DNA of 64,000 nucleotides from Escherichia phage NiC89. Every line of letters starts with the position of its first letter. Position 1 is the stretch's first letter. The stretch is from sequence record LC620505.1. The stretch is one strand, 5' to 3'. A program made the translations under genes and the position numbers. Under the pieces are notes generated by a model, which did not search any database, had not been told where the DNA came from, and saw only the letters and a program-made list of their open reading frames with translations. Shown here piece after piece: positions 2,493 to 19,643 of the stretch.

Positions 2493-3328
2493 TAGAATGC
2501 TCCTTGGAAAATATTATCACCACTAATAGGTCTATTATACAAATACTCTATGCCACCGGGTTTAATATAGTTCCATGTCTGAAACGGATGCGTCTGATAT
2601 GGATGATATAGATTATAAGGATTAAATCCAGGAGTTCTCCAGGTAGTGTTCCAAGGAAAAGAATCGTTTTTAATCATCTTTTCAATTACATCTTTTATAG
2701 CTTTTTCACTATCAAAACTTTCTTTATTTTCCTTCGATGGAAAAAGCTTATTCTCTACATCATTCCATGTATAAACTCGCTGAGCGGTTTTTGGAATACT
2801 GTCACGCTCCCCTCGAGCCATCCAATAAACAGGAACATTTAATATTTCACTCGCGTGATCGCAGTGGTGAGCGAGATCGTCAATATAACAAATTACGTTA
2901 TATTTCTCTTTTGCCTTTTTGAACAACTCTTCTTTTGAAGAATCATGACCACACATCAATACTTCTGAGAAGGCACCAGGAAAAAGAGCATTCAAATTAA
3001 ATTGACGATTCAGCAGAGCATCAATAGAATCACCCAATGCTGTAACAGCTACAAAATTATAATCTTCTTTTAATTTGTTAATTACACATAGAGCATCTTT
3101 ATATGGAGACAAATAACGAATAAAATCTGAACGATTATACTTTTCGATTAATTTAACACCAAGTTCTTCATCGCAATTAAAGAGCTTACCAGGAGAAATA
3201 AATTTTTCGTCCTGAATCATTTTTAAAATATGTTCCAACGGAAGATTATATTTTTGGGCAAAATAAGGAAGGCCCGATTGCCAGCTTAAACACACCCCGT
3301 CAATATCAGTCAAAATAGTAGGCTTCAT
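2492..3328 (-). CDS. HAD-superfamily-like hydrolase (278 aa)
   Basis: N-terminal ILTDIDGV motif (HAD motif I DxDG); compact operon context. Confidence 0.55.
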   Translation of the reverse strand: MKPTILTDIDGVCLSWQSGLPYFAQKYNLPLEHILKMIQDEKFISPGKLFNCDEELGVKLIEKYNRSDFIRYLSPYKDALCVINKLKEDYNFVAVTALGDSIDALLNRQFNLNALFPGAFSEVLMCGHDSSKEELFKKAKEKYNVICYIDDLAHHCDHASEILNVPVYWMARGERDSIPKTAQRVYTWNDVENKLFPSKENKESFDSEKAIKDVIEKMIKNDSFPWNTTWRTPGFNPYNLYHPYQTHPFQTWNYIKPGGIEYLYNRPISGDNIFQGAF

Positions 3329-3789
3329 AGAGAGTCTCTTAATAGGTTTAACACATCAATAAATTCAGCTTCGGTTAGTATTGTATCATCTTTTGTTAGA
3401 CTACTAGCCATGCTGTGCTTCAAAACTTTTCCTTTCGAGGCTAGTAATGCATCACGAAAGCCCTTGTTTTGAATCGCTGCCTCAAAATACGCATTTGTGT
3501 ATAATTCTTTCCACGCTGGGGAGTATCTTGAAAATGGAACTCCAAGCCAGAAGAGGGTTCCGCGGTCCTGAGCTCTTGCATAAGACCTTCCAGCTTGTTG
3601 GGCGGCAAGCCCGGATAACCCAAATATACGACGTTGTTGTTCAACATTTTTCACCTTGCATCCTTGGAGGAATCCTTCAAGACCTCCAAATTGAATACCA
3701 TCCATAACGAAAGGCCAATGGGCGAAATTACTTAACGCACATGATGGCCACCTAAAATTACTTCTAATCTCTAACTCAGACATTTTCAA
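3325..3789 (-). CDS. YbiA/DUF1768-like protein (154 aa)
   Basis: LSNFAHWPF-type motif; locally GC-richer than surroundings. Confidence 0.5.
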   Translation of the reverse strand: MKMSELEIRSNFRWPSCALSNFAHWPFVMDGIQFGGLEGFLQGCKVKNVEQQRRIFGLSGLAAQQAGRSYARAQDRGTLFWLGVPFSRYSPAWKELYTNAYFEAAIQNKGFRDALLASKGKVLKHSMASSLTKDDTILTEAEFIDVLNLLRDSL

Positions 3790-4503: not shown

Positions 4504-4869
4504 TTAAATATCAAATTCGTTAAGAACTACATCAAAGATTGCTTCAAGATGGTCAGGTTTAGCTCTGTTACTCAGAATATGACGAATCCAAGTTTTAACC
4601 AAAAGCTTGCGATTAACGCCATTCCAGCAAGGATGAGTCCCTAAATCGCGTTGACGGAAATCATCATCCAGAGCGATTTTGAAGTTTGAACCTTCCATTG
4701 TGATTGAAACCGTGATGCCATTTTCAAATCGCATATAAACGTAGTTAGGAGTCATATACTGTTCAATTTCGCATACTGATCCATTTTGATGTTTCCAAAG
4801 GCAAATAGTATCAATAGAACCTACAATACCATTAGAAACATATTTACGTTCAAAGTTGATGTAGTTCAT
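4504..4869 (-). CDS. hypothetical protein (121 aa)
   Basis: ORF track; early-promoter-like element upstream. Confidence 0.5.
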   Translation of the reverse strand: MNYINFERKYVSNGIVGSIDTICLWKHQNGSVCEIEQYMTPNYVYMRFENGITVSITMEGSNFKIALDDDFRQRDLGTHPCWNGVNRKLLVKTWIRHILSNRAKPDHLEAIFDVVLNEFDI

Positions 4870-4904
4870 TTTTATTCTCCGAGATGTTTAATTGCGGTAC
4901 AGGT

Positions 4905-4935
4905 ATATAATATCATATCCTGTACCAAAGTAAAC
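4905..4935 (-). promoter_or_regulatory. early-promoter-like element (GTTTAC -35, TATTAT -10)
   Basis: Minus strand GTTTAC at 4930-4935, about 17 nt spacer, TATTATA. Confidence 0.5.
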
Positions 4936-4937
4936 AA

Positions 4938-5270
4938 TTATTTTACTACTTTCCAATGTTGCATGTCAAGTTTACCAACTTTTTTCATCTTCTCAATTAA
5001 GCGTTCTGCACGTTGGCGAGCTGTAACATAATGCCATTCACCTAATTCATTTTGTTCAATTTTTCCAACGATTACTGTATTCAATTCATAAATCCAACCA
5101 GTAAAGAAATTATGAACTTGAATTGTAAAGGTGAAATCTGTTCCCATACCTTCTGTTGTTTCTACTTCAATAATATCACCTTCAACTGCCATTAAGAACC
5201 ACATAGTTTCATCATATTTACCGTTGAAGCATTTAGTTTTAACTGCAGCGTTCAGATTAATTGTTTTCAT
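4938..5270 (-). CDS. hypothetical protein (110 aa)
   Basis: ORF track; SD AAGGAG; promoter-like element upstream. Confidence 0.5.
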   Translation of the reverse strand: MKTINLNAAVKTKCFNGKYDETMWFLMAVEGDIIEVETTEGMGTDFTFTIQVHNFFTGWIYELNTVIVGKIEQNELGEWHYVTARQRAERLIEKMKKVGKLDMQHWKVVK

Positions 5271-14179: not shown

Positions 14180-16444
14180 TCATAATTTACAGGATGAACA
14201 ATCTTCAGCTTTTGGAGTTTCTATTTCATAATCATCAGTACCAGAACCGTCACGGGTATTATGATAATAGAAATTTTTTCCGCCAAAATACCAAAAATAC
14301 AAAAGGTCATCAATCATTATTGACATTGGAACTTTTCCTTTTGGAAAAATCTGCGGGTCATAATATGTATTCGCTGAAGCTGATTGACATACCCATTTCA
14401 GCATAATAGCTACCTGCGTAAGATAAGGTTTATTACCTTTCTTAGCTAATTTCCATGTATAATCATATAGGTCTATGTTATGTTCAATATTGGGCACGAC
14501 TTGATTAAAGGAACCCTCTTTTGATTCTTTAACAGAGACTGGTCCACGTGGAGGCTCGATACCGTTTGTACTGTTAGAAACTTGGGAAGATGACTCACAT
14601 GGCATAAGTGCTGATAATGTGCTATTACGGATGCCAAAGAGCTTAAGGTCTTCCCGCAGCGACGACCAGTCACAAACGTATTTTGGAGCTGCGATTTGGT
14701 CAATCTTTTTATTGTACCAGTCAATAGGTAATTCGCCTCGAGACCAACGAGTGTCTGAATAATATTCACAAGGTCCTTTTTCTTTGGCGAGTTTAATGGA
14801 TGCTTTAATGAGTCCATACTGTAATCTCTCAAATAGTTCATGTGTTAAATCGTTAGCATCTTCATAAGAAGCAAAGTTACTTGCCAACCAAGCTGCATAG
14901 TTAGTAACACCTACACCGAGGTTACGACGCTTTTTAGCTTTTTCTGCTTCAGGAACTGGATATCCTTGGTAATCCAAAAGATTATCAAGAGCACGAACCT
15001 GGACTTCTGCCAATTCATTAATTTTATCTTGGTCTTGCCAGTCAAAATTATCCAGTACGAATGCAGAGAGAGTACACAATCCAATTTCAGCATCAGGACT
15101 ATTCACATCATTTGTTGGAATAGCAATTTCACAGCACAAGTTACTCTGACGAATAGGTGCCTTTTCACGAATAAACGGAGTATAGTTATTCGTATTATCA
15201 ATGAACTGTACATAAATCCTTGCTGTTCCTGAGCGTTCAGTCATGAGCAATTCAAATAGTTCACGGGCTTTAATACGCTTTTTACGAATATTAGGGTCTT
15301 TTTCTGCTGCTTCGTATAATTCACGGAAACGGTCTTGGTCTTTAAAATAAGAATAATAAAGCTCGCCACCCATTTCATGCGGACTGAACAAAGTAATGTA
15401 ATCGTTCTTTCCGAATCGTTCCATCATCAAATCATTCAGCTGAACACCATAATCCATATGACGAATGCGGTTTTCTTCTACGCCTTTGTTATTTTTCAAA
15501 ACAAGAAGATTTTCAACTTCCAAATGCCAAATAGGATAATAAGCAGTAGCAGCGCCGCCACGAATTCCACCCTGTGAGCATGATTTAACAGCAGTCTGAA
15601 AATGTTTCCAAAAAGGAATAACACCAGTATGGCGTACTTCACCCATGCCAATCTTAGAACCTTCAGCACGAATCATACCAACGTTAATACCAATTCCAGC
15701 GCGTTTAGAGATATATTCAACAATTGAAGCGGAAGCCTTATTGATAGACTTTAATGAATCACCTGCCTCAATAACAACGCATGAACTAAACTGCCGAGTT
15801 GGAGTACGGCAACCAGCCATAATAGGAGTTGGTAATGAAATCTGTCGAGTAGATACCGCTTCATAAAAACGGATAACATGTTTTAATCTATCAGCAGGTT
15901 CATCTTGATGCAATGCCATTCCAATAGTCATAAATGCAAACTGTGGAGTTTCATAAATTTGACCAGTGGTTTTATCTTTAACTAGATATTTTTCTTTTAA
16001 TTGCATCGCCCCGGAATAAGTAAATTCCATATCCCGCTCGTGCTTAATTTTTGATTCTAAAAATGTAATTTCTTCTGCTGAATATTTTGACAATAATTCA
16101 GGGTCATATTTACCTTCATTTACACAGTAAGAAATATGGTCAATAAATGAACGTGGTTCATACTGCCCATAAACATGCTTACGAAGAGCAAACATTAAAC
16201 AGCGTGCAGCTACATATTGATAATCAGGTTCTTCAACCGAAATAGAATTCGCAGCGGCCTTAATGACAATAGTCTGAATATCATCAGTTGTCATTCCATC
16301 ACGGAGATAAGATTTAATATTTTCATATAATTCATAAGGATCTACTGATGTTCCTTCAGCTGCCCAAGATAAAACTTTAATAATTTTTTGTGGGTCAAAG
16401 CTCTGAGAAACACCACTACTTTTGATAACATTAATTAATTGCAT
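14180..16444 (-). CDS. nrdA: ribonucleotide reductase large subunit
   Basis: 754 aa; ATP-cone N-terminus and C-terminal CxxC tail (DCSSCKL). Confidence 0.92.
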   Translation of the reverse strand: MQLINVIKSSGVSQSFDPQKIIKVLSWAAEGTSVDPYELYENIKSYLRDGMTTDDIQTIVIKAAANSISVEEPDYQYVAARCLMFALRKHVYGQYEPRSFIDHISYCVNEGKYDPELLSKYSAEEITFLESKIKHERDMEFTYSGAMQLKEKYLVKDKTTGQIYETPQFAFMTIGMALHQDEPADRLKHVIRFYEAVSTRQISLPTPIMAGCRTPTRQFSSCVVIEAGDSLKSINKASASIVEYISKRAGIGINVGMIRAEGSKIGMGEVRHTGVIPFWKHFQTAVKSCSQGGIRGGAATAYYPIWHLEVENLLVLKNNKGVEENRIRHMDYGVQLNDLMMERFGKNDYITLFSPHEMGGELYYSYFKDQDRFRELYEAAEKDPNIRKKRIKARELFELLMTERSGTARIYVQFIDNTNNYTPFIREKAPIRQSNLCCEIAIPTNDVNSPDAEIGLCTLSAFVLDNFDWQDQDKINELAEVQVRALDNLLDYQGYPVPEAEKAKKRRNLGVGVTNYAAWLASNFASYEDANDLTHELFERLQYGLIKASIKLAKEKGPCEYYSDTRWSRGELPIDWYNKKIDQIAAPKYVCDWSSLREDLKLFGIRNSTLSALMPCESSSQVSNSTNGIEPPRGPVSVKESKEGSFNQVVPNIEHNIDLYDYTWKLAKKGNKPYLTQVAIMLKWVCQSASANTYYDPQIFPKGKVPMSIMIDDLLYFWYFGGKNFYYHNTRDGSGTDDYEIETPKAEDCSSCKL

Positions 16445-16761
16445 AAGTCCTCAACTTGAAAATCGTCTTTAAACAATCGGTTAACTATATGAGCTATTAT
16501 ATCACCATGACACGGCTTTGGTTTACATGTGCATCCTAGCCTCATTCCACGTAAAGGCTCTAAATGTGCTTTAGTTATTTCTCCGGATTTAATTCGACGT
16601 ATAAAATCTTTTTTGAATAATTCAATGGCAGCCTCCCGGCTGCCAGCATCTTTACCGACGTAATTTCCCCAAAATGTACCACGGTGAATATTAACATCAA
16701 AGTCGGATTTATATTTATTCACTACTCGGCATATACGGCCTGCGCGGTTGTAAGTGTTCAT
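16435..16761 (-). CDS. DUF4326-like protein (108 aa)
   Basis: C-terminal [12 protein letters not shown] motif. Confidence 0.5.
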
Positions 16762-16990
16762 ATTGTTCTTCCGTTAAAACAGTAATATCGTAGTAACAGT
16801 CAGAAGAAGTTTTAACTGTGGAAATTTTATTATCAAAATACTCACGAGTCATTTTATGAGTATAATATTTTTTGCCATAAATGATAATAGGCTGATTTGG
16901 ACCTGGAACTTCTAACTCACTTGGATTAGGAAGTGTAAAAAGAACTACACCAGAAGTATCTTTAAATCGTAAAATCATATATCCTCGCAA
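16715..16990 (-). CDS. hypothetical protein (91 aa)
   Basis: ORF track; overlaps the downstream ORF by 47 nt. Confidence 0.45.
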
Positions 16991-16998
16991 TAATAAAA

Positions 16999-17859
16999 TT
17001 ACACCGCCATTTTTCCTTTAATTGGCGGATGAGATACATAGTTGTTAAGAACAAAATTATGAGGCTTTGCAAATTGACTCAACCAAAATACCTGCGATTC
17101 TGTGTCCCATTCATCAAATTCATCTGGAAATTTTAATTGTAATTCGCATAAATCCATAGGTTCACGACATAAAATTTCTTTACATTGTTCTACGTGATTC
17201 ATATAGATATGAGTATTACCACCAGAAAATATCAAATCTCCCGGAATAAGATTACACATCTTAGCTACAATATGAACTAACGTAGCATATGATGCAATAT
17301 TAAATGGAAGACCGAGGAAAACATCTACCGAACGTTGATACCACTGAAGGTCAAGGTATCCATTACGCACATTAAACTGATAGAACATATGACAAGGCGG
17401 TAATGCCATATATTTAAGTTCAGCTGGATTCCACGCAGAAACAATTTGACGCCTATCATTTGGCAGTTTTTTAATACGATCAATAACTTCTATAATTTGA
17501 TCTACACCGCCAAAATCACGCCACTGTTTTCCATAAATTGGACCAAGTTCACCGCTATGGTATCCTAAATCTTTTGCTTGATTTTCGTAATTTTCATCCC
17601 AGACTGTTTTGCCTTGAATTAATGAATCATGTTGAATTAATCGCAAATCATTGACATTTGTGCTTCCTGATAAAAACCATATTAGCTCAGCAATGCATGC
17701 ATTCCAGGCGAGCTTTTTAGTTGTTACTGCAGGAAAACCTTTGGTTAAATCCCAACGCAATTTAGTACCGAACAAAGCAATTGTTCCTGTGCCCGTTCGG
17801 TCATCGGTTTCATAGCCATTTTCAAAAATGTCTTTAATTAAATCTTGGTATTGTTTCAT
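16999..17859 (-). CDS. td: thymidylate synthase (intron-less)
   Basis: 286 aa continuous ORF; matches T4 TS exon-joined length. Confidence 0.92.
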
Positions 17860-17904
17860 TTAGTACCTTATATAAATTATAATACATTTTATGAAGCTAA
17901 ATAA

Positions 17905-18252
17905 TCAATACGGTTTAGCATCAAATTTTCTCTCAATTTCAGGCGTGAAATATAATTCTTTACCGCGTTTGGAAAAGCGACCAATAATATGATAATTATT
18001 CTCATCAAACGTGATATTACCAATATCCATAGCTTTCAACCAAATATCGATATTTCTATCCAGCTTTATGTTAAAATTCCAATACGGAGAACTATTACCG
18101 AAAATACTACAAGCGGATTCAGTGAAACAACTGCTATAAATCTTGTCTTTAGGAACTACTAATTGATAGACACCTTTAATAAACTGAGGACCCTGCCACT
18201 TTGGCTGTTTCTCATCTTTTTCTAATAGAATAGGGTAATAATTAAAATTCAT
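17905..18252 (-). CDS. hypothetical protein (115 aa) inserted between frd and td
   Basis: ORF track; no recognisable motif. Confidence 0.5.
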   Translation of the reverse strand: MNFNYYPILLEKDEKQPKWQGPQFIKGVYQLVVPKDKIYSSCFTESACSIFGNSSPYWNFNIKLDRNIDIWLKAMDIGNITFDENNYHIIGRFSKRGKELYFTPEIERKFDAKPY

Positions 18253-18271
18253 ATTTCCGCCGCGCGTTATT

Positions 18272-19191
<920 letters not shown>

Positions 19192-19283
19192 TATATTTTC
19201 CTCAAATTCATTTAAATCAAGACTATGCAATTTTTAAAGCATTGCATAATAGAATTCATCATTCATAAACTCAAATACAAAAA

Positions 19284-19643
19284 TTATATTATCTCCCATC
19301 GAAAAGGGTCAGGAGCATATCCGATAGAGTTAATCATTTTAACTAAAGTTACCATTCCTTTGTTAACTGCTTGTGCGATTTCATCAAAAACTTCATCGCT
19401 ATCATCATAAAGGTCATTAAAAAGTTCTAACACGTTCTTCTGAACTTTTAATTTATGACCAACAATCTCGCCTACAGTAAATTCGTTTCCGCCGATTCCG
19501 GTGTAAAACGTAATTACACCAGTTAACAGACTTTCGCGAGAATCTAGGTCATGTGATAAATTAATATAAGCCATCCCGGGTGCAGTTTTAAGTTGGCAAC
19601 GAATTCTTACTTGGGTAATTCCGGTTACATGAATGTCGGACAT
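19284..19643 (-). CDS. hypothetical protein (119 aa)
   Basis: ORF track. Confidence 0.5.
   Translation of the reverse strand: MSDIHVTGITQVRIRCQLKTAPGMAYINLSHDLDSRESLLTGVITFYTGIGGNEFTVGEIVGHKLKVQKNVLELFNDLYDDSDEVFDEIAQAVNKGMVTLVKMINSIGYAPDPFRWEII

Follow-up and report, generated by a model that had tools for sequence, protein, structure and literature searches.

The frd and td genes of Escherichia phage NiC89, a member of the genus Tequatrovirus, are separated by a 115-aa ORF that we identify, at a probability of about 95%, as a genuine gene, namely td.1 of T6, also named RB32ORF229c and belonging to the family PHROG 1928. The match to PHROG 1928, a low dN/dS and a structural model with a pLDDT of 90 argue together against a chance reading frame. 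Both the gene and the repeat that flanks it were already present in GenBank, and td.1 is an ordinary, previously annotated gene of unknown function. The details added here are its strict residency in one slot, a tandem paralogy, a vestigial copy of the td start and what may be a relic of another gene, together with an incongruent similarity to an uncultured lineage and a confident model without a structural neighbor.

Identity of td.1 and its residency between frd and td

The window, by which we mean the whole 64,000-nt stretch of DNA that was analyzed (LC620505.1), carries the ORF where the original prediction, made from the letters alone, had placed it, and the interval 17860-18271 coincides exactly with the sequence between frd and td, composed of a leader, the ORF and a spacer (Table 1). 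The frd product matches Pfam DHFR_1 (3e-19), and the td product matches Thymidylat_synt (1.5e-93) over profile positions 1-266 of 266. Because this profile is matched whole and in a single piece, td has no intron here, as had been predicted. An Rfam scan of 16900-19300 found no intron and no other RNA family; the remnant of a group I intron, or an RNA element of another kind, was rejected as a candidate, the only match at E up to 1 being a spurious one to an lncRNA (20 bits). The ORF had been credited with its own TA-rich upstream sequence, which turns out to be misplaced: the TA-rich 45 nt (15.6% GC) lie downstream, before td, and the 19-nt leader has a GC content of 52.6%.

Table 1. Coordinates of genes, spacers and junction features around td.1 in the window
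Feature	Position	Strand	Basis or remark
nrdA	14180-16444	minus	
nrdA.1 (DUF4326)	16435-16761	minus	
nrdA.2 (DUF5496)	16715-16990	minus	
td, thymidylate synthase, 286 aa, without group I intron	16999-17859	minus	ORF listing, Pfam and Rfam
Junction repeat, right copy, TAAATGAAACAA; functional td start codon (17857-17859) inside	17851-17862	minus	Repeat search and alignment
Possible remnant of a lost paralogue B (its 3' end); stop overlaps td ATG	17856-17876	minus	17/21 nt identical, in frame
AT-rich spacer, td.1 stop to td start, 45 nt; td RBS AAGG at 17866-17869	17860-17904	minus	
Candidate MotA-type middle promoter for td, GCTTCA-N12-TAATTT	17874-17897	minus	Consensus match only
td.1 ORF, 115 aa, ATG start	17905-18252	minus	td.1 (T6), RB32ORF229c (RB32/RB51); PHROG 1928
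GC-rich leader AATAACGCGCGGCGGAAAT, frd stop to td.1 start, 19 nt, SD-like GGCGG	18253-18271	minus	
Junction repeat, left copy, TAAATGAAATAA; frd stop TGA (18272-18274) inside	18267-18278	minus	Repeat search; alignments with T4, T2, T6, RB69 and Shf125875
frd, dihydrofolate reductase, 193 aa, C-terminus ...ESVYK*	18272-18853	minus	ORF listing and Pfam

Two further observations concern the neighboring genes. The overlap of nrdA.1 and nrdA.2 amounts to 47 nt if nrdA.1 starts at 16761; this start is uncertain because the RB51 record has a shorter nrdA.1 (288 nt). The slot upstream of frd is also variable, being occupied in the window and RB51 by a 113-126-aa ORF (18850-19230, PHROG 8592) and a 119-aa ORF (19284-19643), in T2, T6 and HY03 by an 81-aa ORF abutting frd, and in T4 by nothing between frd.1 and frd.

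Over the 2.1-kb region, the window shows 99.6% identity to wV7 and to O157 typing phage 7, and 99.5% to RB51, RB68 and Ac3. In the RB51 record (FJ839693) the ORF is listed as "RB32ORF229c hypothetical protein" with the note "flanked by 9 bp repeat," and the T6 record (AY262134.2) gives it the name td.1; two BASEL records, AugustSocin and TadeuszReichstein, annotate it as "putative homing endonuclease." The T6 and RB32/RB51 versions represent the same gene, with 98% protein identity; they lie likewise between frd and td, with the same junction repeats, and differ from the window ORF in nothing of substance. A literature search on RB32ORF229c, td.1 and frd-td found nothing relevant; the name td.1 probably originates with Sandegren et al. 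in 2005.

The original prediction had described frd and td of T4 as adjacent or overlapping, with a group I intron in td, and had viewed the ORF as inserted relative to that junction. The T4 record (NC_000866) agrees, with a 4-nt frd/td overlap, no ORF in between and a td intron with I-TevI, and the window ORF indeed lies within a clean 416-bp indel at the overlap. Of the two phages in which the same ORF would have spoken against an insertion, T2 carries it, as does T6 (98% protein identity in both), and T4 lacks it. By tblastn, the ORF was found in 581 of 50,697 phage records, 362 of them at ≥90% and 219 at <60% identity, and an 80-nt probe spanning the T4-type frd/td junction was found in 35 records only, many of them T4 strains. 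Because of these counts (362 records vs. 35), the ORF-bearing arrangement is the rule among T-even phages and T4 the exception, td.1 being carried by about nine-tenths of the sequenced Tequatrovirus records.

Residues 4-111 of the window protein match positions 2-125 of 126 of PHROG 1928 (E = 4.4e-36), and all 22 aligned family members, namely the window ORF and 21 relatives, match this profile. PHROG 1928 carries no annotation of its own, to which the present analysis adds a constant frd-td slot, frequent tandem duplication and a confident fold without a PDB neighbor. HMMER, run exhaustively against 1.84 billion representative proteins, recovered only 19 clusters (five were reached by a word-indexed search), one of them spurious and the rest of 95-126 aa; the partial match of P0016, an 838-aa TPR protein, was discarded as a low-complexity artefact. 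Every named member of the family is a hypothetical protein of an approximately 170-kb T4-like phage of Enterobacterales, and the family is confined to T4-like phages.

The order Frd, A, (B), Td, in which A denotes the td.1 homologue, was found without exception in 22 of 22 divergent loci, which comprise Kanagawavirus Q7622, a Jiaodavirus-like Klebsiella phage, Klebsiella phage phi1_146055, Muldoonvirus WSPA, three metagenomic contigs and 15 IMG/VR loci. The same slot, just after frd and before td, is occupied in RB51, T2, T6, ECO4, AugustSocin and Shf125875. In the divergent loci the A start usually overlaps the frd stop, and most of them contain a second gene, B (113-119 aa), after A and before td, the stop of which often overlaps the td ATG. 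B is a paralogue of A, as judged by matches to PHROG 1928 at 8e-33 and 8e-36 and an hhalign probability of 96.5% against the A alignment (tandem B genes at L006 2826-3185, L011 5332-5673, L017 3344-3688, L018 540-887, L008 2796-3143 and in L030-L040). Tequatrovirus has the A copy only.

Junction scars and the history of the cassette

In alignments with T4, the window and T2 both show the indel as a single gap bounded by TAAATGAAA(T/C)AA. Its ends form a direct repeat (Table 1) with 9 nt exact and 11 of 12 matching, and a 9-nt junction match has a chance of about 8e-6 at this base composition. In the left repeat the frd stop is followed by AAATAA, and ATGAAATAA is a vestigial, dead copy of the td start ATGAAACAA; the live start lies in the right repeat. 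The overlapping ATGA junction of T4, reportedly described by Purohit and Mathews in 1984, is thus retained in both its halves, with the surroundings of the frd stop preserved at the left end and the td start at the right end. In contrast to T4, however, the halves stand 416 bp apart, the junction sequence is duplicated, and td has a new RBS and a promoter-like motif where the T4 gene is translationally coupled to frd.

RB69 (Mosigvirus), the Frd of which is only 59% identical to that of the window, has an overlapped junction as in T4 (GTGTATAAATGAAACAATACCAA). The Frd C-terminus VYK* is common to T4, RB69, T2, T6 and the window, that is, to ORF-bearing and ORF-less phages alike; in genera where a homologue of the ORF overlaps the frd stop, Frd ends in VY plus 3-6 residues (TPKDI, ERKL, GEFRG, GFKK and GEKR). 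In addition, the window ORF and the A genes of contigs L011 and L017 share 63-66% identity, and the respective Frd proteins only 48-49%; the resulting ORF/Frd identity ratio is 1.31-1.34, against 0.47-0.98 in all 19 other pairs, in a comparison that comprises two flanking genes and two metagenomic contigs. The homology to these contigs runs from ATG to stop codon and no further. Because of the vestigial td start, the VYK* end in common with RB69 and the incongruent ORF/Frd similarity, the Tequatrovirus arrangement appears to have been rebuilt, probably by re-insertion of an A cassette into an overlapped junction of the T4/RB69 kind, and not inherited by unbroken descent.

The main rival to re-insertion is purely vertical descent, in which the ORF has stood between frd and td since the common ancestor and the T4-type and RB69-type phages each lost it via short repeats. 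Such a history would suit the presence of a homologue in the same slot in every genus sampled, the large ORF-bearing majority in Tequatrovirus (362 records vs. 35) and the nesting of ORF-less frd among ORF-bearing frd, and it would fit the habits of T4, in which deletion between short repeats is a well-known process. We nevertheless regard it as unlikely, as a 9-12-nt copy of the td start would have had to be present behind the frd stop by coincidence, at a probability of about 8e-6 for 9 nt, and neither the truncated VYK* shared by the ORF-bearing phages and RB69, as opposed to the VY tails of 3-6 residues, nor the closer similarity of the ORF than of Frd to L011 and L017, the opposite of all other pairs, would be explained.

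Within Tequatrovirus, the ORF-less state looks secondary. The Shigella phage Shf125875 (L016 1894-2862), which is filed as Mosigvirus, contains a Tequatrovirus-type cassette with the same junction repeats despite its divergent frd (only 85% identical) and an ORF at a dS of 0.6-0.9 to other copies, and frd of the ORF-less T4, HY03, ECO07P1 and FL18 is interspersed with ORF-bearing frd at 93-97% identity; it is because of these two patterns that we take the ORF-less state for a derived one. In Shf125875, owing to a 2-nt insertion, the frd frame extends to 205 aa and overlaps with the ORF.

We propose that re-insertion proceeded from an ancestral order frd-A-B-td, the family having been resident in this slot in enterobacterial T4-like phages. 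In the stem of Tequatrovirus and Mosigvirus the slot would have been emptied, giving a Frd that ends in VYK* and a stop codon overlapping the td ATG. Judging from the scars, an A-type copy would then have been put back as a 416-bp cassette with a 9-12-bp junction duplication; in this cassette the ORF would stand between a short GC-rich leader and a 45-nt tail, and the tail would have given td a new RBS and a MotA-type promoter motif. Occasional precise loss via the flanking repeats may have followed, and would be the likeliest origin of the T4-type junction in Tequatrovirus.

Both spacers may preserve traces of these events. The 21 nt just before td (TTT ATA TAA GGT ACT AAA TGA) and the end of Kanagawavirus B (TTT ATA TTA GGT GCA GAA TGA, encoding FILGAE*), the stop of which overlaps td, are identical in frame at 17 of 21 nt, from which it would seem that the end of a paralogue B, since lost, may survive here; the resemblance is suggestive only, because 21 nt are few and several positions are constrained by the td RBS and ATG. 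Similarly, the 19-nt leader may derive from the frd 3' end of a donor, in view of a weak resemblance to the frd 3' end of L011 (GGTGAAAAGCG). A perfect 9-nt inverted pair, TATATAAAT and ATTTATATA, was also observed near both ends of the indel (17869-17877 and 18274-18282); it is probably due to chance, because it is AT-only and partly inside frd.

Mobile elements and the td intron

The original prediction had further suggested that the ORF could be a remnant of mobile-element traffic at a homing hotspot. Recombination scars (the 9-12-bp duplication, the vestigial td start and possibly the B relic) are indeed present, but nothing ties the ORF to a mobile-element protein, and its strong purifying selection (dN/dS 0.02-0.06) contradicts the idea of a remnant.

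Free-standing homing endonuclease genes of T-even phages, such as the seg and mob genes, are intergenic and variably present, and some bring promoters for downstream genes (PMC2988022). Like these, td.1 is an intergenic cassette between conserved genes that is present or absent among close relatives, and it could on this ground be taken for a free-standing homing endonuclease, or a decayed remnant of one, at a hotspot beside the I-TevI target. The label in the AugustSocin and TadeuszReichstein records points the same way, as does the td intron in 9 of the 10 ORF-less lineages checked. However, neither the ORF nor any of the 22 family members matches a nuclease family: searches of Pfam, NCBIfam and PADLOC gave no match to GIY-YIG, HNH, LAGLIDADG or PD-(D/E)xK, and the catalytic motif of the EDxHD class is likewise missing. 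Invariant acidic, His and Cys residues are absent, the predicted fold is unlike any solved nuclease, and 115 aa are too few for a nuclease plus DNA-binding domains, td.1 being at most half the size of the seg and mob genes. A decaying relic is excluded by the dN/dS of 0.02-0.06, and the strict synteny across genera (22/22 loci) differs from the sporadic distribution of selfish elements; the flanking junction duplication, moreover, is not a product of homing. In addition, an inventory of homing endonuclease genes in the T4 family assigns a single one to T2, itself a carrier of td.1 (PMC2993671), and all four combinations of presence and absence of ORF and intron exist. A homing endonuclease is therefore not supported, every testable defining feature of those families having failed, and we consider it highly improbable.

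A transposable element or insertion sequence would share with the td.1 cassette the target-site-like duplication, that is, the direct repeat at both ends of the indel. Unlike such an element, the cassette has no transposase similarity in its sole ORF and no convincing terminal inverted repeats, and its spacers are not repeated elsewhere in the window.

With regard to the td intron, it was found in 193 phage records. It accompanies the ORF-less junction in T4, HY03, SG1, ECO07P1, e11/2, F1, FL18 and CJY920, and, by annotation only, in G2133. About 150 other intron-bearing records must have the ORF as well, because the ORF-less junction occurs in 35 records only. A strict link between ORF-less junction and intron was ruled out by FL12, which has neither ORF nor intron, and by T6 and ECO4, which have both. 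It is established that flanking DNA is co-converted during I-TevI homing (PMC2988022), and such co-conversion could have carried the ORF-less junction, about 550-970 bp away from the I-TevI site, along with the intron, a loose link that is drawn from the counts alone.

FL18 (L013 1961-3844) is filed as Mosigvirus and has Tequatrovirus-like frd and td (93-96% nt identity), and most of the I-TevI frame is gone from its td intron; similar intron deletions were seen in e11/2, F1 and CJY920. In an IMG/VR genome of 159.9 kb (L040 3153-5022), td is split near the T4 site, with matches at 3153-3701 and 4714-5022, which suggests that this site also harbors an intron outside Tequatrovirus.

Selection, expression and possible role of td.1

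Among seven T-even copies of td.1, every informative pair gave a dN/dS of 0.02-0.06, with at most 34 synonymous and 11 non-synonymous differences and a dS reaching 0.29 in T2 and the values given above in Shf125875, as expected of a working gene under strong purifying selection. The gene is dispensable, because T4 and RB69 do without it.

As to expression, the 19-nt leader contains no promoter-like motif. With no such motif to itself, and with its start 19 nt behind the frd stop, td.1 is most likely co-transcribed with frd in an early/middle frd-td-nrdA unit. In the whole window, 25 matches to GCTTYA-N11-13-TANNNT were counted, against 6.6 ± 2.4 expected from shuffled sequences, and 16 of the 25 are on the minus strand. 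One of them, in the td spacer (Table 1), has the GCTTYA core 11-13 nt upstream of TAnnnT that defines MotA middle promoters and is a candidate for a promoter of this type. The motif is not indispensable, because the td.1-td spacer of Shf125875 has a 32-nt deletion by which the promoter-like part is gone. Scanning for sigma-70 promoters and terminators revealed no enrichment of the former and none of the latter, and the RNA folds of both spacers were no better than those of shuffled sequences (z = +0.42 and -0.90). A repeated regulatory cassette (PeSL-like) was rejected as a candidate, given that neither spacer recurs in the window.

The Td.1 protein is predicted to be a soluble, mildly basic and mostly beta-stranded protein of about 13 kDa. 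AlphaFold2, run with the 22-sequence alignment, yielded a model with a mean pLDDT of 90.1 and a pTM of 0.83, in which three strands are followed by a helix and a long hairpin; this model has no significant neighbor in the PDB, and a sequence-profile search of the PDB returned chance matches only (dynein, E = 0.02). Only Q16, W19, G27, G91, K95 and G97 are invariant across the family, with L9, Y29, N79, R92, F93 and F102 near-invariant. The family alignment shows no conserved D, E, H or C, and the pI is 8.5-9. Pfam, NCBIfam and PADLOC gave no match for the family; the PADLOC search for defense and anti-defense genes found nothing, and every named homologue is a "hypothetical protein."

The lack of conserved acidic, His and Cys residues, together with the basic pI, argues against a metal-dependent nuclease and most other enzymes and would suit a small binding module. 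The likeliest reading, to which we give an even chance, is that Td.1 is a non-catalytic binding protein with a nucleic acid or another infection protein as its partner; any specific ligand that might be named for it would be doubtful. Td.1 could, for instance, be an OB-fold-like binder of single-stranded nucleic acids, for example one that regulates transactions of mRNA or DNA in the gene 32-frd-td-nrd region. An OB domain is a five-stranded barrel with a helix between strands 3 and 4, and a hint of nucleic-acid binding comes from the predicted order of three strands, helix and hairpin and from the prevalence of OB-fold ssDNA-binding proteins among the structural matches, all of which were below threshold and none significant; we consider this improbable. 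A still more speculative proposal is that Td.1 and its tandem paralogue have a new fold and that Td.1 is a dedicated, non-enzymatic partner of the phage thymidylate-synthesis module. It might then bind Frd, Td or their mRNA and so tune the supply of dTMP, or it might protect the module from a host defense, which, if true, would explain why the gene has held on to the frd-td slot in many genera and came back in Tequatrovirus after its loss.

Current understanding is unchanged by these results. The junction scars offer a tidy example of how overlapping genes can gain and lose a cassette undamaged. As T4 is the reference of the group, genes that are missing from it, td.1 included, are mostly unstudied. 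Knowing what td.1 does would close a small gap in the picture of the nucleotide-precursor gene cluster.
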